A stretch of DNA of 64,000 nt from Maridesulfovibrio sp. (lineage in GTDB: Bacteria; Desulfobacterota; Desulfovibrionia; Desulfovibrionales; Desulfovibrionaceae). The number at the start of each line of letters is the position of its first letter. Position 1 is the first letter of the stretch. The notes beneath the pieces were generated by a model. That model was not told where the DNA came from and searched no databases. It was given only the letters and a program-made list of their open reading frames with translations. The stretch lies in the NCBI RefSeq assembly GCF_963666665.1, contig NZ_OY762999.1, positions 3,867,954 through 3,931,953 of the forward strand. The letters are read 5' to 3'. Both the position numbers and the translations under genes were made by a program. Of the stretch, positions 49,258 through 60,141 are shown piece by piece.

Positions 49258-49291
49258 AAGGCTGCGGGATTTTTCCCGCAGCCTTTTTTTG
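49258..49291 (+). terminator. intrinsic terminator after eno
   Basis: GGCTGCGGGA / TCCCGCAGCC stem followed by T7. Confidence 0.85.
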
Positions 49292-49356
49292 TGATGTTAT
49301 AACACGATCAAGTCTCTTATTATTGACCCGTTATGCTGCGAAAGGTATGTTTGAGT

Positions 49357-50151
49357 ATGCGTGCAAATTTAATTTTTTCGGCATTACTTGCTGTACTTTC
49401 TTTTTCAAGTGTCACTTATGCGGAGGTAAGTGTCCGGTATTCATGTTGCGAAACGAGGAACAACCAGTTTGTAGGAGAGTTGCTCTCCAGTGCTTTAAAA
49501 GCCAGCAGCCCTGATGTTAATTTTGTTATGCTGAAATGCTACCCGAATTTGCGCAAACGCCGCATGCTTGAACATGGTTCAATCGATGTACTACCGCTGA
49601 TCCAAAGTAAGAAGTATGACGAAGAGCATATTCCAATTAACGTTCCGCTCACTAAGGGCAATATTTCAAAGCGAGTGCTGGTTGTTTCAAAATCTAAAGT
49701 AGGCCTTTTTGAAAATGTAAATTCATTAGAAGATTTTCGGGCCTTGAATTTAGTAGGCGCGTTCGGCCAAAAATGGTTCGATAACAAAGTGTGGGAAGAG
49801 AATGGTCTAAAGCATGTCTCTGTGGCGGATTGGCAGCTTATTTATTGTATGCTGAGTCGTACGAATAGAAATGTTGACTATTTTCCGCGATCTGTTCTTG
49901 AAGCAAAGGAAGAGATTCGTACTTATTCGGACTTGGTAATTGTCCCGAATATCCTTTTTTCTTATGATAAGAACATCATAATCTATCTTTCACCCAAACG
50001 TAGGGAATTGAAGCCTATATTGGAGAAAGCCTTGCGAAATGCACAATCGTCAGGCTTAATCGATAAACTGGTGGATAAATATTATGGGCAGGATCTAAAC
50101 AGTCTTGAAATTGATAAGCGGAAGGTCTTCCATTTAAAGACACCGGAGTAA
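49357..50151 (+). CDS. exported hypothetical protein, family-3 solute-binding-protein-like
   Basis: Signal peptide MRANLIFSALLAVLSFSSVTYA. The length and alternating pattern resemble orphan SBP_bac_3-like proteins. It is visibly more AT-rich than the flanking eno and folD. Confidence 0.45.
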   Translation: MRANLIFSALLAVLSFSSVTYAEVSVRYSCCETRNNQFVGELLSSALKASSPDVNFVMLKCYPNLRKRRMLEHGSIDVLPLIQSKKYDEEHIPINVPLTKGNISKRVLVVSKSKVGLFENVNSLEDFRALNLVGAFGQKWFDNKVWEENGLKHVSVADWQLIYCMLSRTNRNVDYFPRSVLEAKEEIRTYSDLVIVPNILFSYDKNIIIYLSPKRRELKPILEKALRNAQSSGLIDKLVDKYYGQDLNSLEIDKRKVFHLKTPE

Positions 50152-50238
50152 TCATTCAGTAGGCTGTGTGCTTGCCAGTCCTCAAAAATTACAATATGCA
50201 TTTTTCACCCACAGGCCATAAACAGCGGAGAAATTTCA

Positions 50239-51099
50239 ATGCAGATTTTGAATGGTAAAGAAACAGCTCTTACTATTCGTGAAGAGCTGAAAGTAGAGAT
50301 AGACGGACTTAAAGAAAAACACGGTAGAGCGCCCGGTCTGGCCGTTATTCTGGTCGGCGAGGACCCCGCATCTCAGGTATACGTGCGCAACAAGGAAATT
50401 GCCTGCGAAAAGGCAGGAATTGTTTCCACTGCCCACCGTATCGATGCATCCGTTTCTCAGGAAGAGCTTGAAGCACTGATCCAGAATCTCAACGCAGACG
50501 AGACCATCGACGGTATCCTGCTGCAGCTGCCCCTGCCCAAGGGACTGGACAGCCAGCGCTGTCTCGAACTCATTGATCCCGGCAAGGACGTGGACGGCTT
50601 CCATCCCATGAACGTAGGTAAGCTCATGCTCGGCCTGCCCGGTTTCCGTTCCTGCACCCCTGCAGGTATCATTACCCTGCTGGAACGCTACAACCTGCCC
50701 ACTTCCGGTAAGAAAGCCGTAGTAGTAGGTCGTTCCAACATCGTTGGTAAGCCTCTCGCCATGATGCTCATGCAGTACGGTGATTTCGCAAACGCCACCG
50801 TGACTGTCTGCCATTCCCGCACTGACAACCTCGCTGAGGAAGTCAAAGCCGCAGACTTCGTTTTCGCTGCCATCGGCATTCCCAAGTTCATTAAGAAAGA
50901 GATGGTTAAAGACGGCGCAGTTGTAGTTGATGTAGGCATCAACCGAACTGACGAAGGTCTGGTCGGTGACTGCGATTACGCAGCACTGGAAGACGTGGCA
51001 TCCGCCATGACCCCCGTTCCCGGCGGAGTCGGTCCCATGACCATCGCTCAGCTGCTGATCAACACCGTACAGGCTTATAAGGAGCATGTCGGGGCTTAA
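50239..51099 (+). CDS. folD: bifunctional methylenetetrahydrofolate dehydrogenase / methenyl-THF cyclohydrolase
   Basis: 286 aa with the conserved [22 protein letters not shown] and PGGVGPMT motifs. Confidence 0.95.
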
Positions 51100-51129
51100 T
51101 TTATTGGTTTATGCGTGTTTGAAGTTTTG

Positions 51130-51167
51130 AAAAACTCCCTGTCTCGGTTGAGGCAGGGAGTTTTTTT
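51130..51167 (+). terminator. intrinsic terminator after folD
   Basis: AAAAACTCCCTGTCTC / GAGGCAGGGAGTTTTT stem followed by a T-run. Confidence 0.85.
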
Positions 51168-51192
51168 GTGGACTAGGTTAATTGACAAATTT

Positions 51193-51251
51193 AAATATTC
51201 TACTAGAATAATTCTAAGAGAATAAAATTTAGCATTCTTTTAGAATAATTT
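51193..51251. repeat. 59-nt structured repeat, left copy (palindrome ATTCTACTAGAAT plus a 13-bp-stem hairpin)
   Basis: Sequence is AAATATTCTACTAGAAT-A-ATTCT-N26-AGAATAATTT. It aligns position by position with the copy at 52384..52442. Confidence 0.8.
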
Positions 51252-51261
51252 GGAGTATGTT

Positions 51262-52383
51262 GTGAATAATCCTTTTCGCTTTAATACCTTGCGACCAAGT
51301 GATCCCTTTTGTGACCGTGAAAAGGAACTCACTGATTTGATTTCACACGGCATGAATGGTGCGAACGTAACCCTATTTTCTCCGCGCAGGTACGGGAAAA
51401 CATCTTTGATTAAACGTGCCCAGAAGGAAATGCATGATAAGGGCGCCTATGTGTTTTATGTTGATTTTTACAGGGTCATGTCGGTTGAGGATCTTGCTTC
51501 GAGATTGGCGCGGGCTGTTTATGAAGGATTGAGCGAGTATGTATCTTTTTTCGAGAAAGGTAAAAAGGCTCTGCTTGAATTTTTCAAGACTTATAGGCCT
51601 GTTTTTACTCCCACTGAAGAAGGGGGAGTAAAAATAGATGTTCGTGCTACTGAAGGCATTTCCGGTTATGACCTGCTTGAATCCCTGCTCTCCGAGATAG
51701 GGCGGTTTACCGAGAAGTCGGATAAGCCAGTGCATATTGCCATGGATGAGTTTCAGGATATTGTTGAAGTGGACAAGGGTAAGACTGAAGCTTTACTGCG
51801 AACGCATATCCAGATGCATGGCGCGGGGTATATATTTGCAGGAAGCAGGCGACGTATTCTTAAATCCATGTTTACTGACAGGCATCGTCCTTTCTATAAC
51901 AGCACCCTTTTGATGGAACTCCCTCCTCTGCCACATGAAGATCTTGTGGAGTATATTGTCGAGCTTTTCAATAAGGGTGGTAAGTCCATTTCGCACGAAG
52001 CTGCCTCTACCGTTTCAAATCTTGTACAGCAATATCCTTACTACGCGCAGCTTTTCAGTTATTTGTTATTCAGTATGGGAGACAACCCCAGTCTAGAGGA
52101 TGTTGATGAATGTTTTGAGTCACTTCTTGCGAGTGAGAGGTATTCCTATCAGGGGATTGTTGACGGCTTAACACCGGTGCAACTGGCTTTGCTGGTGGGG
52201 TTGGCAAAATATCCGGGGAGCAAGGTTACTTCTCAGGTGTTTTTGAAGGAAACGAATCTATCGTCAGGTGGAGTCCAAAAGGCTTTAAAACACCTGAGTA
52301 TACAGGATTTAGTTAGCAATGAAGAAAACGGTTGGGAGCTTGTTGATCCTGTTTTTAGAAAGTGGCTGGTCAGGACATTTTAA
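51262..52383 (+). CDS. AAA+ ATPase, Arch_ATPase/DUF234-like
   Basis: Walker A (SPRRYGKTSL), Walker B (VHIAMDEFQDI) and a C-terminal winged-helix-like region. The preferred start is GTG 51262 after TGGAG; the track ORF starts at TTG 51250. Confidence 0.75.
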   Translation: MNNPFRFNTLRPSDPFCDREKELTDLISHGMNGANVTLFSPRRYGKTSLIKRAQKEMHDKGAYVFYVDFYRVMSVEDLASRLARAVYEGLSEYVSFFEKGKKALLEFFKTYRPVFTPTEEGGVKIDVRATEGISGYDLLESLLSEIGRFTEKSDKPVHIAMDEFQDIVEVDKGKTEALLRTHIQMHGAGYIFAGSRRRILKSMFTDRHRPFYNSTLLMELPPLPHEDLVEYIVELFNKGGKSISHEAASTVSNLVQQYPYYAQLFSYLLFSMGDNPSLEDVDECFESLLASERYSYQGIVDGLTPVQLALLVGLAKYPGSKVTSQVFLKETNLSSGGVQKALKHLSIQDLVSNEENGWELVDPVFRKWLVRTF

Positions 52384-52442
52384 AAATATTCTACTAGAAT
52401 TATTCTGACAGAACATTTTTAAATGTTCTGTCAGAATAATTT
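52384..52442. repeat. 59-nt structured repeat, right copy
   Basis: Sequence is AAATATTCTACTAGAAT-T-ATTCT-N26-AGAATAATTT, starting right after the ATPase stop codon. The internal hairpin ATTCTGACAGAAC / GTTCTGTCAGAAT is perfect. Confidence 0.8.
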
Positions 52443-52561
52443 TGATCTATCTCCTTGCCTCTTCCATCTTCACCAACTTCCCCCCTATCCCACACCAAAC
52501 AATTTCAGTATAAAGTCGTAAGACATCTACACCCCATTCACACTAATCTACGGACTGCCAC

Positions 52562-53368
52562 ATGAAAGGACTCACCGAATTGCTGACTTGTATTCAGGAA
52601 ATTTCCGGCGGAAATTATTCCAATGACATCATGCATTTGACTACTGATGAATATGATCCTTACGTGCGGGAACTGGCGGAATCAGTTGGCTTGATGATGG
52701 TCCGTATTGAGGCCCGTGAATTTGCGCTTGAGCAGGCTAATGAAGAACTTAAGTGTAATGTGGTTGCAACCGTCAAAGCCGTGGCTCGCGGTTTGAGTCT
52801 GCGCGATCCGTATACCCGCGGACATGCGGAACGGGTTGGTAATTATTGCGAGCGCTTGGCTCGCAGGATGGGACTTTCCGAAGATGAAATCTGGACCGTG
52901 CATGTAGCTGGAACCCTGCATGATATAGGCAAGATCGGGTTCAGTGACCGCTTGATCCAAAATGTAGATACCAAGGTTGATGCGGATATGCTGGCGGAGA
53001 TCAAGCAGCACCCGGAATGGGGATTCAAGATGCTGCGCGGGCTGGAGTTTCTCGGTCCTGCTTTGGAATATGTGCGTTCGCACCATGAGCGTCTGGACGG
53101 GACCGGATATCCCAACGGCTTGCAGGGCGATGAAATCAAGACCGGATCACGTATCCTTTCTATTGCCGATGTGTTTGACGCTGTAACCACCACCCGCAGT
53201 TATCAGGAAGCTATGGATTTGGAAAAAGCCTATTCTACCCTGCGTAAGCTGGCTGGCCCTTCTCTTGATCCTAAGTTGGTGGAGTTTTTCATAGCCGAAA
53301 CTAAAGAAAACGGCCTTGAGGATGTGGAAGAAAATTTCAGTACCTGCCCTATGGGAAAATCAGGTTAA
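52562..53368 (+). CDS. HD-GYP domain c-di-GMP phosphodiesterase with an N-terminal HAMP-like segment
   Basis: HDIGKIG and HHERLDGTGYP motifs. The N-terminal LTELLTCIQEISGGNYSNDI...DEYDPYVRELAESVGLMMVRI resembles a HAMP AS1-connector-AS2 unit. Confidence 0.88.
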   Translation: MKGLTELLTCIQEISGGNYSNDIMHLTTDEYDPYVRELAESVGLMMVRIEAREFALEQANEELKCNVVATVKAVARGLSLRDPYTRGHAERVGNYCERLARRMGLSEDEIWTVHVAGTLHDIGKIGFSDRLIQNVDTKVDADMLAEIKQHPEWGFKMLRGLEFLGPALEYVRSHHERLDGTGYPNGLQGDEIKTGSRILSIADVFDAVTTTRSYQEAMDLEKAYSTLRKLAGPSLDPKLVEFFIAETKENGLEDVEENFSTCPMGKSG

Positions 53369-53385
53369 TAGTATAGGCCCTTGTT

Positions 53386-53427
53386 GGGGCTTCTTTAGAC
53401 TATTAAAGAAGCCCCTGTTGTATTTTT
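53386..53427. terminator. hairpin terminator between the convergent HD-GYP gene and the AT-rich operon
   Basis: GGGGCTTCTTTA / TAAAGAAGCCCC stem. A T-rich tail is present on the + strand only. Confidence 0.65.
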
Positions 53428-54502
53428 ACTGCTCACGATTTGTGAAATTCAAAGACCTTTTGCCTGGATTGGTTATCGTCTTTTGAACTAATATAATCAT
53501 GAATAGAAATGGAACAAAATCCAATGTTAAGCATAAGGCCCACCAGTGCAGCATGTTCAGAATATTATTGTAACATAATTTTATAGTTGGCTCGCTGGAG
53601 GCCAAATCTTTTAGTGGTGCAATTGTTATATCTAATGCTTTGAATGCCTTTTGTATCTGTTCTAAATCACCCTGTAATGTGTTGGCTTCAGTTGTTAAAG
53701 CCTTTTGGGTGCTTGTTTGCTTCTGCTGGGAGTACTCACGGAGAGTTTGCTCGAGGTTTTTAATTGAGTTTTCAAGTGATATTTGTCCAATCCCTATTCC
53801 GGGAGATAGTATTTTTTGTAACTCCAGATTAATTGTGCGGACATGGTTCGAATAGTTCCTTTTAGTAAATGATTCAGGGTCAGATTCCATTATGCTCAGT
53901 TCAGAAGTAATAATTTTCTGTGATGCATTTATCTTTTCAATGTTAGAGTCTACTTTATTTTGTATATCAGATATTTTTTTATCTACAATGGTAGCAGATT
54001 TCCATATTGTGCCTTTTTTTTGATTTCCAGTATATAAACCTTGACTTGAATTTTTAAGAATTCTTTCTGTGTCTTTTTGTGCGATGTTGATAGATTGCTG
54101 TGCGGTTATATATTTGGGTATTAAGTCGCTTTCAGTGAAATTGTTTGAGAATGTTTTGTATTGATCATAGTTGGATAATCTATAGATTTCATTTTTGGAT
54201 AATCCTACAATTGACCACATTGTAGAACTAGAGAATATAAGAATTGCCGCAGTTATTATTAGTAGTATTCTTGATATGAAACTGTGTGTTGAGCTTAGAA
54301 ATTTTGCTATTATATTTGAAAAGTACAGCATTAGAAAGAAGCTTGCTAGTGCAACTGTTGAAGCTATGAATGGTGATACGCTGTCTATGAGCCCTGTATA
54401 TGTTGCGTATGCTGATGCACTTGTGCATATTAATATTGTTAATAAAAGTCCAAAAGTTGTCAGTGCTGTTTTAAGCTGTTCTATTTTTCTTCTGTTAAAC
54501 AT
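53426..54502 (-). CDS. hypothetical membrane protein: 3 N-terminal TM helices, a hydrophilic helical region of about 210 aa, and 1 C-terminal TM helix (operon gene 4)
   Basis: 358-aa ORF with GAGG 6 nt upstream of the ATG and an 8-nt overlap with the preceding gene. Hydrophobic segments lie at about 13-35, 42-65, 76-100 and 316-338. The central region is Ser/Asn/Lys/Gln/Ile-rich. I recognise no family. Confidence 0.7.
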   Translation of the reverse strand: MFNRRKIEQLKTALTTFGLLLTILICTSASAYATYTGLIDSVSPFIASTVALASFFLMLYFSNIIAKFLSSTHSFISRILLIITAAILIFSSSTMWSIVGLSKNEIYRLSNYDQYKTFSNNFTESDLIPKYITAQQSINIAQKDTERILKNSSQGLYTGNQKKGTIWKSATIVDKKISDIQNKVDSNIEKINASQKIITSELSIMESDPESFTKRNYSNHVRTINLELQKILSPGIGIGQISLENSIKNLEQTLREYSQQKQTSTQKALTTEANTLQGDLEQIQKAFKALDITIAPLKDLASSEPTIKLCYNNILNMLHWWALCLTLDFVPFLFMIILVQKTITNPGKRSLNFTNREQ

Positions 54503-55634
54503 TGTATACCTCTATTGACCCTTCAATATTGTTTTTCTCTGCCCATTGCTCACACAGTTTTGCAATTTGATGGTATTGTCTTCTTTTGGGACTTCGTTTG
54601 GGGTGTTGAGTCCTTTCATCTCCTCGCTCAATTCCTATTTTTAGGTGATTGGCTTTGATTAGCATTGAGAAATGGCTCGTTTGTAATATCTCAGAGAAGC
54701 ATGCGAAAAAAATATATGAATTCCAGTCTTCCCATTTGTTGTTGCTTGTGGATGATAAGTTGTCAGGAATCAGTGATGTTATTTTAGTAGAAGATAGTCC
54801 CAGTATTTTGCAGGCAAGAATAGCTTCGTATGAAATATTACAGATTACTCCATTTTTTGTATAAGCTTCTGTGTTCAGGGTGAATTTCTTTTGATCCTCT
54901 ATGTCATTTAGAAATACATGGGCTGATAGTGGAGGAATGATGCTGGTTGTATGTATGTTGAGTTTTTCCAAGGTTTTTGTGATTATATTTTTTTTTCTGT
55001 CGATTGAGTTGTGAATTTTGCTTAGTTGTCGTTTTGATAGGATCGCACAGTATCCAGATTTCAATACGTGTAGGTATTGGTCGTTTTCATTTATTTCTAT
55101 TGGAATAATCGCCGGCTGTGTTGAGCTTAATTCTGCTGCAACAGCAATTAATTCTGCTAATGACCCTGAATCAACCGAGACTATCTGATGTTTCTTATTT
55201 TCAATGTGCTGATAGTTAATTAGATGGCTAAAATGCGATCTTAATGCAATATCTTGCATTTGGGTGTCCCAGAGGTCTGTTTCCGTCGAGAGTAGTGCAT
55301 TGAATGCCTCTATCTCCTGTTCAAATGCGGCCGAAACGGCATATTCTTTAATTGATTTTATGTCAGTTTTATTAAGGTGCTCAAGTTTGCGTATGAGATG
55401 TTCAATGAAATAGTACACCGCTACGGAGTCGTTTTTGTTGGTGTATTGGAATCTTAATATTAGCCTGCCTTCTCTCCCTTCGAGTCGCTTTATTGGTTTG
55501 CTTTTGTATGTTTGTATATATTTTTTGTCTTGGGTGGTGTTTATTGTAAACATTTCCATGGGATAGTCTATGAAGTGAGATAGCTCGGAGGTGTAAACCT
55601 CTGTCTCTGGTGATATGTCGGCTCCAGTAATCAT
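54495..55634 (-). CDS. hypothetical soluble protein, 379 aa (operon gene 3)
   Basis: Long uninterrupted ORF in AT-rich DNA. ATGA start/stop overlap with the GTPase gene. Basic C-terminal patch RTQHPKRSPKRRQYHQ. I recognise no motif. Confidence 0.7.
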   Translation of the reverse strand: MITGADISPETEVYTSELSHFIDYPMEMFTINTTQDKKYIQTYKSKPIKRLEGREGRLILRFQYTNKNDSVAVYYFIEHLIRKLEHLNKTDIKSIKEYAVSAAFEQEIEAFNALLSTETDLWDTQMQDIALRSHFSHLINYQHIENKKHQIVSVDSGSLAELIAVAAELSSTQPAIIPIEINENDQYLHVLKSGYCAILSKRQLSKIHNSIDRKKNIITKTLEKLNIHTTSIIPPLSAHVFLNDIEDQKKFTLNTEAYTKNGVICNISYEAILACKILGLSSTKITSLIPDNLSSTSNNKWEDWNSYIFFACFSEILQTSHFSMLIKANHLKIGIERGDERTQHPKRSPKRRQYHQIAKLCEQWAEKNNIEGSIEVYNV

Positions 55635-56491
55635 TTTGCAATCCGTTCAATAAAGTTTATAAAGCTTCTTGTATATATGTGTCCGTCTATTTCTATGTAG
55701 TATTCATAGTCTGGGTACGATTTGTTGTTTATTGTGTGAGTATTGCCCACTGTAGAATGCCATGTGTAAGAGATATTCTCTGGGTTAAAACAGTCTTTTA
55801 GAAGGTTGCTCGCGGTGAAATATTTTTTGCTAAAAAACGTTTTTGCTGTATCTCCCTCGGTATATAGGTCTTCAACTTTATCGGTTTTAAAGTGAATGTC
55901 AGATTTGTTGAGGACTACCATAACAGGAATGTTGACTGGGTTACCAATGTCCAACCCATAGTTGAGTGACATCATTTCCGCTAATCGCCTGATGAACATT
56001 GTGTCAGACATAGGTGTTGTTTGGCCTAAAGCGAATTTGTTGCTGACTTCATACGGTTCAGGGATTGCAGGGTCGTCAAGATCCAGCATGATGATGATTC
56101 CATCAGCTTGGCAAATACTGAGTAGTAATTGTTCGTCAGGGTCATTTGATGTGGAAAGAAGTTGTTTTATTACATTGGGTGGTTGTTTTTGAAAGTACTC
56201 TAATTTACGGGCCAGGCGTTCTAAATCCCCTCCTGAGATGTCAGGAAGGTTGAAAGAAACATCTAGCTCTCTATCACTCAGATTCATTATTACCGATCTT
56301 CGAACCAATTCTTTTGCTTCTTTGTTTTGAATTGTCGGCTTAATCCATTCTCTTCTGTCAATAGCATCACTAATTTCGTGGTTTCTTGCTATGGTATGGC
56401 ATCCGTACAGATCGTGTTGCCTTATTTTTTCAAGCATTAAATACAAATAGCACGTCTTTCCTGATTTTCTTTTTCCAATTATTAATATCAA
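55631..56491 (-). CDS. Ras-like (TRAFAC-class) P-loop GTPase, 286 aa (operon gene 2)
   Basis: G1 GKRKSGKT, G3 DISGG at the end of a beta-hairpin (VIMNLS...LDVSFNLPDISGG), and G4 NKSD after a hydrophobic strand (IPVMVVLNKSD). The start is reassigned to TTG 56491, with GGAGG 7 nt upstream and a TTGA overlap with the upstream stop. The track start at 56620 would overlap the upstream gene by 133 nt. Confidence 0.7.
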   Translation of the reverse strand: MILIIGKRKSGKTCYLYLMLEKIRQHDLYGCHTIARNHEISDAIDRREWIKPTIQNKEAKELVRRSVIMNLSDRELDVSFNLPDISGGDLERLARKLEYFQKQPPNVIKQLLSTSNDPDEQLLLSICQADGIIIMLDLDDPAIPEPYEVSNKFALGQTTPMSDTMFIRRLAEMMSLNYGLDIGNPVNIPVMVVLNKSDIHFKTDKVEDLYTEGDTAKTFFSKKYFTASNLLKDCFNPENISYTWHSTVGNTHTINNKSYPDYEYYIEIDGHIYTRSFINFIERIAK

Positions 56492-56955
56492 AACAAAGCC
56501 TCCCCACAGATTAAAAGTCCACTTGCTAGTCCCGTCATTGAACTTGCCCCATATATTATTTCCCGTTTGCGTGATTTGTTGGGGATAGCTTGGGTCAAGC
56601 CAATATTTACAATAAACCACGCAATTGAAGCGATGGTTAGTTTTAAGGGCAAAGAGATCAAAGGCGTGTCCAGAAGATGAGAAAAGATGATGAAGGTGGA
56701 AAACGTAAGGATCTCTAAAATATATATTGCAGGTTTTGTCGCTTGAAGCGTTTTGTTTATTATGTGTATTTTGATTGTACAGATAGTGAGAGCAACCAAA
56801 CCGGTAAAACCTGCTAATGAATAGAATTTATGAAATATGGGTAGAAGCTTTATCGGTGGGGCATCAATGATGATTTGGGTAATTCCGTATATTGTGAGGA
56901 ATATACCGACTCCACCATAAAAAAGACGAATAGGTGGTTTTGAGTTGTTCTTCAC
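56488..56955 (-). CDS. small polytopic membrane protein, 155 aa, 4-5 TM helices (operon gene 1)
   Basis: GTG start with GGGAGA 7 nt upstream. Four to five hydrophobic helices. I recognise no family. Confidence 0.65.
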   Translation of the reverse strand: MKNNSKPPIRLFYGGVGIFLTIYGITQIIIDAPPIKLLPIFHKFYSLAGFTGLVALTICTIKIHIINKTLQATKPAIYILEILTFSTFIIFSHLLDTPLISLPLKLTIASIAWFIVNIGLTQAIPNKSRKREIIYGASSMTGLASGLLICGEALF

Positions 56956-56983
56956 TATAGATTCTCCCGTAATTGTTTTCCGT

Positions 56984-57012
56984 AATATTTGTTAAAAAAA
57001 TAACACTGTCAA
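56984..57012 (-). promoter_or_regulatory. candidate sigma-70 promoter for the AT-rich operon (TTGACA-N17-AATATT)
   Basis: On the minus strand, TTGACA at 57012-57007 and AATATT at 56989-56984 with a 17-nt spacer, about 30 nt upstream of the GTG start. Confidence 0.3.
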
Positions 57013-57393
57013 TTAATATGTTAAATTAAAAGTTTTAATAAGTATTTATTAGTTAATAAAGTTCATGATTTTAAATGGTTGTGTAATGTTGATTTGTATA
57101 AAATTAAGAATCATTACTAATTTTCTTGCCTTCTTTTTAGAAGTGCTTATTATCTTTCTTCGTGTTAAGTATATCTTAACAGTCGCATGGCACAGCGAAG
57201 ACCTAATAAAAGGTTTTGATTTGCCTCTTTCAGAGGTTCACCCCTTCGAATCGTTGCTTTTAAGGCAATTTTCAAGTCTGCTTTTATGTGGGTTTGCAGG
57301 GTTCTTAAACTCTTTTTACGAAGAGGGGGAAAGCTGGAGGAGGTAAATTTTAATAAACTAAAAGCGCGATGCGCATCAAATCAGCCTCTTATC

Positions 57394-60141
57394 ATGAACA
57401 AAAAATCTATCCATATTGAAGGTGCGCGTCAGCACAACCTTAAGAATTTGAACCTTGATATTCCGCGTGATCAGCTGGTGGTGGTCTGCGGTCCGTCGGG
57501 GTCCGGTAAATCAACCCTCTCTTTCGACATTGTCTATGCCGAAGGCCAGCGGCGTTACGTGGAATCTCTTTCCGCTTATGCCCGCCAGTTCCTGCCGCAG
57601 CTGGATAAACCGCAGGTTGATAAGATTGAGGGTCTTTCCCCGGCGATCTCGCTGGAACAGCAATCCACTTCGCGCAACCCGCGTTCAACCGTAGGTACTG
57701 TGACCGAAATTTACGACTTCTTGCGTGTTTTCTTTGCAAGGCTGGGTAAATTTCATTGTCCTGAGTGCGGTATTCCCATTGAAGCTCAGACTTCGGACGA
57801 GATTCTGGAGCGGATCATGGCTTTTGGTGAAGGCACAAAATTTATGCTGATGGCTCCATTGGTTGATCATCAGAAGGGTACCCACAAGGATCTGTTCAAG
57901 AAGCTGAAAAAAGAGGGCTTCGTCCGTGTGCGCGTGGACGGTACGGTCTATACCATCGATGATGTGCCTGACCTTGAGAAGAACAAGAAGCACAATGTTG
58001 ATCTGGTTGTGGACCGCCTTGTAATTAAGGGCGATATGAAAAAGCGCCTCGGCGATTCCCTCGAGCTGGCCCTGCGCTATGGGGATGAATCCATCGTGGT
58101 CTCCATTATTGGCGGCGAGGATGTGTATCTTTCAACCATGTCCACCTGTCCGTCATGCAAGATCAGCATGCCCAAGCTTTCCCCTCAGTTATTTTCATTT
58201 AACAGCCCGCAGGGGGCCTGTACGCTTTGTTCGGGTATCGGCAGTGTTGAATATTACGAGCCGGAACTTCTGGCACCCAACAAGGGGCTTTCATTAAAGA
58301 CCGGAGCGGTCATTCCGTGGAAATCCCCGAAGATGTTCGAGCGCTATGAAAAGGATTTCCGGGCGCTGGGCAAGAAGCATGGCTTCAAGGTAGATACTCC
58401 GCTCGCAGAATTTTCAGCTGACGCATATAAGGCCCTGTTCTACGGTGACAAGGAATTGGGCTGGGAAGGCGTGGTTGACCTGCTTGAAGTGGGGCATAAT
58501 CTCGGGCGTATCTGGCGCGATGAGCTTTCCCGTTTCAGACAGTCGCAGCCCTGCCCGGCCTGTGAAGGTGCGAGGCTTCGTCCTGAATCATTAGCCGTAA
58601 AAGTGAACTCCATTTCAATTTTTGAATTCTGCTCCATGTCCATCAAACGTGCATTGGACTGGTTGGAAGGGCTGGAGTTTACCGGCCATGAACTGCTCAT
58701 CGCTGAGCCGCTCCTGAAGGAACTGACCCATCGCTTGGGATTCATGGTTAATGTCGGGCTTGATTATCTTAACCTTGGTCGGAATATGGCGACCCTTTCC
58801 GGTGGGGAGGCTCAGCGCATCAGGCTGGCTGGTCAGCTCGGTTCCGGGCTGGTGGGCGTTACCTACGTGCTTGATGAACCTTCCATCGGTCTGCATCCGC
58901 GTGATAACGAGCGTTTGATCAAGACTCTGCGTTCCTTGCAGTCCCGCGGCAATACCGTGCTGGTGGTGGAGCATGATGAATCCACCATTCGCAATGCCGA
59001 CCATGTTATTGAAATCGGTCCCGGATCGGGTATGCTCGGCGGGGAGATTGTTTTTCAGGGCAGTGTGAAACAGCTGCTTGGCAAGGCTCAGACTTTGACC
59101 GCCAAGTATCTACGTGGTGAACTTGCCTTGGATAAGCCTGAAGAGCGGCGTATTCCCAAGGATTGGATTAAGCTCAAGGGTGTTAAGACCAACAACCTCA
59201 AGAACCTTGATGTTGATATCCCGCTGGGGGTGCTCTGCTGCTTTACCGGGGTTTCCGGTTCGGGCAAAAGTTCTCTTGTTGTGGATTCCATGTATAAGCA
59301 TCTTGCCCTTTCGCGCGGTGTGAAGGTTGATCAGCCCGGACGTATTGCAGGAATTGAAGGGATTGAAAAAGTGGAGAAAGTTATTTCCATTGACCAGTCA
59401 CCCATTGGCAGGACCCCGCGTTCCAACCCGGCCACCTACACCAAGATTTTTGATGAAATACGCAAGATTTTTTGCGCTACCAAGGAAGCCAAGAAACGCG
59501 GATACAAGCCGGGAAGATTCAGCTTTAACGTGCGCGGCGGACGTTGCGAAGCATGTCGCGGTGACGGTCAGATCAGGGTGGAAATGCACTTTCTGCCCGA
59601 TGTCTACGTGACCTGTGATGTCTGCAAGGGCAAGCGCTACAACAGCCAGACTCTGGAAGTGGATTACAAGGGCAAGAACATCGCCGAAGTTCTTGATCTG
59701 ACCGTGCGTCAATCCAAGGCCTTCTTTGAAAATCATCCTACCCTCAAGCGCAGGCTGGAAGTCTTGGAGCAGGTCGGCCTTGAATATCTGCAGCTGGGAC
59801 AGCCCGCCACCACCCTTTCAGGCGGTGAAGCACAGCGGATCAAGATTTCCCGCGAGCTTGGTAAACGCAGCCTGCCCGGAACATTGTACATCCTTGATGA
59901 ACCTACTACCGGCCTGCATATGCACGAAGTGGGCAAACTGATCAAGGTCCTGCAGCAGTTGGTAGATAGAGGGGCCACGGTTATAGTCATCGAGCATAAT
60001 ACCGATGTGATCCGTGCTTCTGATTATGTATTTGATTTAGGTCCCGGAGGCGGGGAGTCCGGTGGGCAGATTGTAGCTCAGGGGACTCCTGAAGAGATTA
60101 TTGCCAACCCGAATTCAGTGACCGGAGAGTTCCTGATTTAA
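57394..60141 (+). CDS. uvrA: excinuclease ABC subunit A
   Basis: Starts MNKKSIHIEGARQHNLKN, with two ABC Walker A motifs (GPSGSGKST, GVSGSGKSS) and zinc-finger Cys clusters. The track ORF extends 36 codons upstream without support. Confidence 0.96.
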   Translation: MNKKSIHIEGARQHNLKNLNLDIPRDQLVVVCGPSGSGKSTLSFDIVYAEGQRRYVESLSAYARQFLPQLDKPQVDKIEGLSPAISLEQQSTSRNPRSTVGTVTEIYDFLRVFFARLGKFHCPECGIPIEAQTSDEILERIMAFGEGTKFMLMAPLVDHQKGTHKDLFKKLKKEGFVRVRVDGTVYTIDDVPDLEKNKKHNVDLVVDRLVIKGDMKKRLGDSLELALRYGDESIVVSIIGGEDVYLSTMSTCPSCKISMPKLSPQLFSFNSPQGACTLCSGIGSVEYYEPELLAPNKGLSLKTGAVIPWKSPKMFERYEKDFRALGKKHGFKVDTPLAEFSADAYKALFYGDKELGWEGVVDLLEVGHNLGRIWRDELSRFRQSQPCPACEGARLRPESLAVKVNSISIFEFCSMSIKRALDWLEGLEFTGHELLIAEPLLKELTHRLGFMVNVGLDYLNLGRNMATLSGGEAQRIRLAGQLGSGLVGVTYVLDEPSIGLHPRDNERLIKTLRSLQSRGNTVLVVEHDESTIRNADHVIEIGPGSGMLGGEIVFQGSVKQLLGKAQTLTAKYLRGELALDKPEERRIPKDWIKLKGVKTNNLKNLDVDIPLGVLCCFTGVSGSGKSSLVVDSMYKHLALSRGVKVDQPGRIAGIEGIEKVEKVISIDQSPIGRTPRSNPATYTKIFDEIRKIFCATKEAKKRGYKPGRFSFNVRGGRCEACRGDGQIRVEMHFLPDVYVTCDVCKGKRYNSQTLEVDYKGKNIAEVLDLTVRQSKAFFENHPTLKRRLEVLEQVGLEYLQLGQPATTLSGGEAQRIKISRELGKRSLPGTLYILDEPTTGLHMHEVGKLIKVLQQLVDRGATVIVIEHNTDVIRASDYVFDLGPGGGESGGQIVAQGTPEEIIANPNSVTGEFLI

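Follow-up and report, generated by a model that had tools for sequence, protein, structure and literature searches.

We analysed a 64,000-nucleotide (nt) stretch of the genome of Maridesulfovibrio sp. (assembly GCF_963666665.1, contig NZ_OY762999.1, positions 3,867,954 to 3,931,953; hereafter the window, whose own numbering is used throughout), focusing on a predicted GTPase gene and the accessory four-gene membrane cassette to which it belongs. All four genes lie on the minus strand. Gene 1 (56488–56955) encodes a 155-amino-acid (aa) membrane protein with four predicted transmembrane (TM) helices. Gene 2 (55631–56491), which starts at a TTG codon, encodes the GTPase, a predicted divergent member of the DO-GTPase family with 286 aa. 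Gene 3 (54495–55634) encodes a soluble protein of 379 aa, and the 358-aa product of gene 4 (53426–54502) consists of three N-terminal TM helices, ~225 helical residues and one C-terminal TM helix. Gene 1 overlaps gene 2 by 4 nt (TTGA), the ATG of gene 3 overlaps the stop codon of the GTPase gene by 4 nt (ATGA), and gene 4 overlaps gene 3 by 8 nt. A promoter-like site on the minus strand (56984–57012; TTGACA, 17 nt, AATATT; 10 of 12 consensus positions) lies 29 nt upstream of gene 1 and is suggestive of a probable operon promoter; promoter-like sites in the region do not exceed the shuffled expectation. At the other end of the cassette, a hairpin with a 13-bp stem (53386–53415) separates the convergent ends of gene 4 and an HD-GYP gene and is a probable bidirectional terminator.

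Besides the window, six loci carry this four-gene set with its order conserved and its gene sizes similar: another Maridesulfovibrio sp. chromosome (L001; 151, 277, 379 and 361 aa for genes 1 to 4), a 17-kb JGI contig (JGI 3300010430; 158, 286, 379 and 358 aa), a TARA ocean scaffold (L004; 165, 282, 382 and 354 aa), an ENA metagenome scaffold (L005; 178, 276, 378 and 347 aa), a Pseudodesulfovibrio metagenome-assembled genome (L006; 167, 279, 379 and 354 aa) and GCA_942491395.1 (L015; 169, 275, 376 and 346 aa). On two JGI metagenome contigs the cassette is incomplete; in L002 the contig end truncates the beginning of gene 1 and nothing else is missing, and L003 is partial. The genome-collection scan for the GTPase, which used one peptide pattern, contributed a single extra locus, L006. 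Genes 2, 3 and 4 overlap by 4–11 nt in nearly all loci, the exception being genes 2 and 3 of L005, which are 1 nt apart. A gene 1 counterpart of 151–178 aa stands directly upstream of the GTPase gene wherever the available sequence suffices, with weak identity (18–28%), and a gene 3 homologue of 376–382 aa always follows directly downstream. Gene 3 is homologous between near and far loci (hhalign 95%, E = 3.4e-8), and gene 4 retains 36 invariant columns at 22–80% identity.

These data bear on an earlier note on this DNA, which had presented the GTPase as a stand-alone protein, whereas its gene is the second in a cassette of four conserved, overlapping genes. An orphan Ras-superfamily GTPase that acts alone, with private inserts and no dedicated partners, would be in keeping with the lack of a fused domain and with the structural neighbours described below, small GTPases of Rag, Rab and Arf type; that a search found no longer, fused relatives is weak evidence in the same direction. 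The conserved operon already contradicts such a protein. The GTPase gene overlaps both of its neighbours by 4 nt and the order of the four genes is maintained down to ~25% identity, so that, with the family relationships taken up below, a GTPase acting alone is highly improbable.

The reading frame of the GTPase is open on the minus strand from a GTG at 56620 to the TGA at 55631 and has no ATG between 56620 and 56491. The earlier note had described 56620 as an annotated ATG, which is not the codon found there; its figure of 133 nt for the overlap that such a start would create with the upstream gene is correct. It had moved the start to TTG 56491, and each element on which that proposal was built is present: the TTG (56491–56489) overlaps the TGA of gene 1 (56490–56488) as TTGA, and a Shine-Dalgarno sequence, GGAGG (56499–56503, minus strand), precedes it by exactly 7 nt. 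The spacing is the same in L001, L002 and L003. L002 and L003 have GGAGG, 7 nt and TTGA, and L001 has GGAGG, 7 nt and ATGA, so that a true ATG stands in place of the homologous TTG. The frame of the putative extension is closed by stops within ~20 codons in these three loci, so that the 43-codon extension is open only in this genome. More distant homologues begin 1–5 residues before strand β1, and the 286-aa form (P0002) is already in the public protein collection. The relatives' codons, the closed upstream frames and the GGAGG spacing agree, and translation of the GTPase very probably starts at TTG 56491. Initiation at GTG 56620 would give a 329-aa protein whose 43 additional N-terminal residues are encoded inside gene 1. 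The frame is indeed open from there in this genome, but no Shine-Dalgarno sequence precedes the GTG, and the stops in L001, L002 and L003, the ATG of L001, the short N-termini of the homologues and the recorded 286-aa form all argue against this start, which we consider very improbable. The start call matters for expression constructs, as the 329-aa form would place 43 spurious residues ahead of β1.

The N-terminus of the GTPase translated from this minus-strand open reading frame, MILIIGKRKSGKT, contains the G1 motif or P-loop, GKRKSGKT, at residues 6–13 (56453–56476), and not at residues 7–14 as reported before; the P-loop thus begins 5 residues after the N-terminus. A predicted β hairpin (residues 64–81) precedes the G3/Walker B motif DISG (residues 84–87; 56231–56242), which is followed by G88 to give DISGG. 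The hydrophobic strand IIIMLDL spans residues 131–137, and the segment IPVMVVLNKSD ends at residue 198 with the guanine-specificity motif G4, NKSD (residues 195–198; 55898–55909). A G5-like HS (residues 245–246; 55754–55759) follows strand β6 and aligns with the SA of canonical DO-GTPases. All of these motifs are encoded on the minus strand. The candidate switch-I Thr of G2 is T53, located in a conserved W-x-x-P-T and a Thr in 8 of 11 relatives, in a region where the model has a predicted local distance difference test (pLDDT) score below 50. Apart from the residue numbering of the P-loop, G1, G3 and G4 are located where the earlier note had placed them, and its spacings of ~70 and ~105 aa are close to those measured, 72 residues from K12 to D84 and 111 from D84 to N195. 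Its conclusion that the spacings reflect inserts relative to Ras is only partly retained. Both are long compared with Ras, but long spacings are traits of the DO-GTPase family, within which they vary in part. Two extra stretches, ~28 residues before β4 and ~10–16 residues after it, are present in the clade of the window GTPase and absent from shorter members.

Relatives of the GTPase are few. A word-indexed search of 5.8 billion protein clusters returned only three, and HMMER, run exhaustively with a profile against 1.84 billion representatives, returned 11 proteins at E ≤0.001, of which nine are real relatives with 248–282 aa; P0013 (964 aa) from this search is a spurious match to an immunoglobulin-domain protein and was discarded. 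An alignment of 11 sequences, 22–61% identical to the window protein, has invariant residues at G6, G11, K12, T13, W49, G87, D137, L194, K196, D198, H245, S246, Y262 and Y273. D84 (10/11, with Glu in one sequence), N195 (10/11), P189 and the PD of a C-terminal PDY motif are nearly invariant. Judged from this alignment, the conserved G motifs are more than chance.

The AlphaFold2 (AF2) model of the GTPase (mean pLDDT 58, predicted template modelling score (pTM) 0.67) follows a G domain in the order of its strands and helices. Foldseek against the PDB retrieved TRAFAC GTPases in 50 of the 50 matches listed (E ~1e-4), among them G-alpha Ras-like domains, Arl2, Rac1, SelB, EF-1A, BipA and septin. 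An independent VIA-align scan of 48,161 chains placed only small or translational GTPases among its top 50 (Z 9.1–12.2, 138–196 aligned residues). The best match was LokiRagO, an Asgard RagA-like protein (Z 12.2, root-mean-square deviation 3.3 Å, 168 residues), followed by RABL3, RagD, Miro1, Arl2, SR-beta and G-alpha-i. The profile of the GTPase family matched G-alpha, SR-beta, GPN-loop, Ral and Era proteins among PDB sequences. Motifs and modelled fold identify the window protein as a G domain of the TRAFAC class, with NKSD as its guanine-specificity motif, that is predicted to bind and hydrolyse GTP. Motif conservation, Foldseek, VIA-align and the family profile agree with the earlier preference for a TRAFAC GTPase over an AAA or ABC ATPase, and every significant match in these structure and profile comparisons was a TRAFAC GTPase rather than another P-loop fold. 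Were the protein instead a non-GTPase P-loop NTPase of the AAA+, ABC, KAP or kinase-like type, its G motifs would be coincidental. Some relatives do show weak, P-loop-driven Pfam matches to AAA_14 and AAA_24 (E 0.001 or weaker); set against the conserved NKxD, the uniform identity of the significant matches and a strand order that fits a G domain, they leave such an NTPase scarcely credible.

Classical Ras and Arf models barely register. Pfam gave no Ras match in the family and an Arf match (E 0.026) in 2/11 members, and NCBIfam gave only TIGR00231 (small_GTP) for the GTPase, at 19.4 bits against a cut-off of 42.5 and confined to the P-loop. The link is to the DO-GTPases, the core of the 'GTPase-centric' conflict systems predicted computationally by Kaur, Burroughs, Iyer and Aravind (2020; PMC7159879) and represented in Pfam by PF19975 (DO-GTPase1) and PF19993 (DO-GTPase2), with a gathering cut-off of 27 bits. 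PF19993 is matched by nine of the 11 family members and PF19975 by seven. Two cassette relatives, P0006 (37.4 bits) and P0011 (36.5 bits), exceed the cut-off at the level of canonical members, and three canonical DO-GTPases from the phylum of the window (L010, L011 and L012) score at that same level. The GTPase family profile aligned by hhalign with the DO-GTPase2 of L011 at 97.2% (E = 3.3e-11) over 214 columns, from G1 to G5. Profile comparison indicates that the window GTPase family is homologous to the DO-GTPases and is a very small, very rare side branch of them. The protein is not the orphan of the Ras superfamily that had been proposed, and this homology, with the poor fit to classical models, is further evidence against a GTPase acting alone.

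The canonical GTPases of L011 and L012, which contain zinc-ribbon-like Cys motifs, are encoded beside GAP1-N2 and FGE-sulfatase genes; that of L010 is fused to Sel1 repeats. L011 and L012 are canonical DO-GTPase2 systems whose genes run FGE-sulfatase, zinc-ribbon GTPase and GAP1-N2 protein. This order matches the FGS-effector variant described for planctomycetes (Kaur et al., PMC7159879), here in the phylum of the window.

DO-GTPases are always accompanied by GAP1 and frequently membrane-associated, with TM components in 67% of systems; some are fused to four N-terminal TM helices, and a zinc ribbon (60%) and a paired paralogue (38%) are frequent but not obligatory (PMC7159879). The supplement text of that study contains no Desulfovibrio-type or DUF4407 entry. 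The window GTPase resembles the DO-GTPases in the length of its G domain and aligns with them motif for motif (GxxxxGK[ST], PDxxG, hhhhD, xKxD and S-x-x-G). As in DO-GTPase systems, a dedicated partner gene lies directly downstream, TM proteins are associated, and the distribution is mobile and patchy. Unlike canonical members, the window GTPase has neither a zinc ribbon nor a second GTPase paralogue, and in its clade Gly replaces the conserved Walker-B Glu: G88 occupies the position of the Glu in canonical DO-GTPases, which carry PDxAGE, and of Gln61 in Ras. Differences extend to the neighbouring genes. A separate 4-TM protein is encoded just upstream, the 379-aa protein at the GAP1 position has no detectable GAP1-N/M/C similarity, the gene set is fixed at four, and the 3+1-TM coiled-coil protein is not described for DO-GTPase systems. 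The DO-GTPase kind is already known and computationally defined; the divergent single-GTPase four-gene membrane cassette is a new form of it.

Gene 3 had no match in Pfam, PDB sequences (E up to 10), PADLOC, PHROGs or NCBIfam. Its AF2 model has an overall pLDDT of 49, with ~70 for residues ~30–116 and values below 50 elsewhere; the ESM Atlas's own model was too poor to use (pTM 0.19). The modelled N-terminal domain (residues 1–116; 55287–55634, minus strand) is weakly longin/PAS-like, with five strands and two helices: residues ~30–116 and a strand at residues 2–10 form a five-stranded sheet, and two helices follow. Nearly all of the first 31 VIA-align matches to the model are longin domains (Z 5.3–7.6). 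They include synbindin (Z 7.6), an Asgard Roadblock-Longin protein (7.3), VAMP7, DENND1A and GATOR1, as well as the SRX domain of the SRP receptor, Ykt6, Sec22, Lst4, FLCN, sedlin, C9orf72-SMCR8, Mon1-Ccz1 and adaptor sigma/mu subunits. A shape search of the Atlas retrieved FLCN/SMCR8, DENND11, Avl9 and an Asgard cluster of 164 aa (TM-scores 0.26–0.33), and, as a weak match (TM-score 0.29), a bacterial cluster with GAP1-N2 in 26% of its members. The predicted order of strands and helices is not exactly that of a longin or roadblock topology. D23, Y43, S45, R54, G56, S101 and N112 of this domain are kept in eight loci.

Longin and roadblock domains are established as ancient GTPase-interacting modules (PMC3521125). 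The juxtaposition of a G domain and a ~116-residue domain that resembles a longin is reminiscent of pairs such as MglA–MglB, Rag with Ragulator, FLCN or GATOR1, SR-beta–SRX, and Rab with DENN, TRAPP or Mon1-Ccz1, and the best structural neighbours of the window GTPase are RagA-like, RagD, Arl2 and SR-beta. Gene 3 has no sequence similarity to these regulators and its structural scores are modest; membership is not claimed. As a lead and not a finding, we tentatively propose that the N-terminal domain of gene 3 may be a longin/PAS-like GTPase-interacting domain, possibly a very divergent GAP1, with the odds somewhat against it. Its invariant Arg recalls the arginine fingers of longin GTPase-activating proteins (GAPs). 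An invariant Arg in gene 3 and a lost Walker-B Glu in the GTPase would fit hydrolysis that is assisted in trans. A bolder and more doubtful proposal is that gene 3 could be a bacterial longin-type regulator, possibly longin-DENN-like and related to GAP1, that supplies R54 as a finger to a Glu-less DO-GTPase within a minimal, fixed GTPase/longin/membrane module.

Compared by language-model features, the ESM Atlas clusters closest to gene 4 (0.95–0.97) carry the automatic name 'DUF4407 domain-containing'. The resemblance to DUF4407 (PF14362), with three TM helices, a long helical region and one TM helix, comes from language-model features only, and the clusters so named share no common Pfam family. 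Assignment to DUF4407 was rejected, as five family members compared with the Pfam model gave no match at E up to 1. PF14362 was also run against 201 genomes from this phylum, in which no protein for comparison exceeded the cut-off.

The cassette occupies an inserted low-GC segment of ~3.7 kb (53359–57103) that is absent from a congener, G007. Synteny with G007 stops at 53358 and resumes at 57104; the flanks are 82–92% identical at the DNA level and exactly 53359–57103 is missing, a clean indel beside uvrA that leaves the uvrA upstream region of G007 ~30 bp after the HD-GYP stop codon. The GC fraction is 0.37 for the cassette and 0.49 for the rest of the window, and it is below that of the flanks in 7/7 loci examined. 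A search with a gene 4 profile detected the cassette in two out of 26 congeneric species genomes and in no genome among 35 others searched in the family and order; most taxonomically named cassette loci are in Desulfovibrionaceae-like genomes. The inserted segment has no terminal direct or inverted repeats, and Rfam gave no match within 53200–57500. The L001 cassette lies on the other side of the HD-GYP gene, in the HD-GYP/folD interval, as opposed to HD-GYP/uvrA in the window. Between the window and L001, UvrA is 96% and HD-GYP 91% identical, compared with 30, 46, 30 and 57% for the products of cassette genes 1 to 4. These comparisons indicate that two congeners carry very different cassette alleles at two sites of one hot spot, and that the cassette is accessory and horizontally acquired.

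We infer from this organization how the four products may interact, in which direction regulation may run and what the cassette may do. The GTPase would be tethered to the membrane by gene 1, gene 4 or both, the separate 4-TM gene 1 possibly being a split equivalent of the 4-TM fusions of DO-GTPases. Gene 3 would set the GTP/GDP state of the GTPase via its longin/PAS-like N-terminal domain with the invariant Arg; as the clade has lost the Walker-B Glu, hydrolysis probably needs help in trans. The nucleotide state would in turn gate the gene 4 membrane protein, the likely output. The GTPase would thus serve as the nucleotide switch of an accessory four-gene membrane cassette, with a role in conflict, directed against phages or mobile elements, as the most likely function; we regard this interpretation as a whole as reasonably probable. 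Conflict is favoured because the cassette is accessory, fast-diverging and inserted in a hot spot.

Several observations weigh against this interpretation. The window GTPase itself scores 18.0 bits with PF19993 and 16.7 bits with PF19975, below the 27-bit cut-off; DISGG is found in it and three close relatives, and the Walker-B Glu (DxxGE) in only 4/11 family members. The AF2 models are of low confidence (mean pLDDT 58 for the GTPase and 49 for gene 3). As for gene 3, Z values of up to 7.6 with longins are 'middling', in a range that the tool calls common for unrelated models, and Foldseek found nothing significant, its matches mixing LOV/PAS, SecB and longin. GAP1 was rejected as a sequence-level assignment for gene 3, with no Pfam match in six members and less than 1% in hhalign against two GAP1-N2 proteins. 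The cassette lacks the GASH or FNIII component and the variable effector domains of DO-GTPase systems. By tblastn, plasmids yielded no copy of the GTPase, and neither plasmids nor phages yielded one of gene 4. None of the four genes matches PADLOC or PHROGs, the 11 GTPase relatives gave nothing beyond noise in PADLOC, and the neighbours are housekeeping genes with no recognisable defence island.

Some of these observations would suit a different role for the same cassette and switch, namely management of envelope or membrane stress, or membrane remodelling, in place of defence. The flanks are housekeeping genes in all loci (uvrA, folD, eno, hydrogenase maturation and isocitrate/isopropylmalate dehydrogenase), which, like the missing PADLOC and PHROG matches and the fixed gene set without variable effectors, favours such a role, and a published comparative study mentions DO-GTPase family proteins beside psp operons and predicts a membrane-stress role. 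The patchy distribution (2/26 congeners), independent insertion sites in one hot spot, divergence far above that of the flanks and consistently low GC, however, are traits of accessory or conflict genes rather than of core physiology. We therefore rank envelope stress second to conflict and consider it rather unlikely.

Experimental work on DO-GTPase systems was not found in the searchable literature. The cassette is the smallest and most fixed DO-GTPase-type version found; its single GTPase, single soluble partner and pair of membrane proteins are encoded within 3.7 kb by translationally coupled genes. It offers a practical entry point to the working of the switch, to the partner as a longin-type GAP or guanine nucleotide exchange factor, and to the membrane output. 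With 11 representatives in 1.84 billion proteins, and most of its named loci in Desulfovibrionaceae-like genomes, the GTPase family is so rare that automated annotation leaves all four genes 'hypothetical'. If the longin reading of gene 3 is true, the cassette would be the compact equivalent, in bacteria, of the machines acting on membranes that eukaryotes and Asgard archaea build from a small GTPase and a longin, and a tractable model for DO-GTPase/GAP1 systems.

The interval 49290–57103, from eno/folD to uvrA, is a variable hot spot in the genus. G007 also lacks the segment 49290–50164 and an ATPase_2/MarR-like gene (51250–52383), where it has a different 220-aa open reading frame. A 59-nt element flanks the ATPase_2 gene (51193–51251 and 52384–52442), and the synteny block of the HD-GYP gene with G007 starts at 52387, inside the second copy. 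The first copy matches G007 DNA beside the HD-GYP gene (78%, inverted), so the element is not private to this genome.

Another element, of ~83 nt (57299–57381), lies just upstream of the true uvrA start. It has three further copies in the genome (74–77% identity) and recurs at several positions in genomes of congeners; Rfam gives no match to it, and it may be similar to repetitive extragenic palindromic (REP) elements or miniature inverted-repeat transposable elements (MITEs). The mechanically derived uvrA reading frame, with its start at 57286, is too long. Its alignment with the L001 UvrA begins only at residue 39, which puts the true start near 57400 (MNKKSIH).

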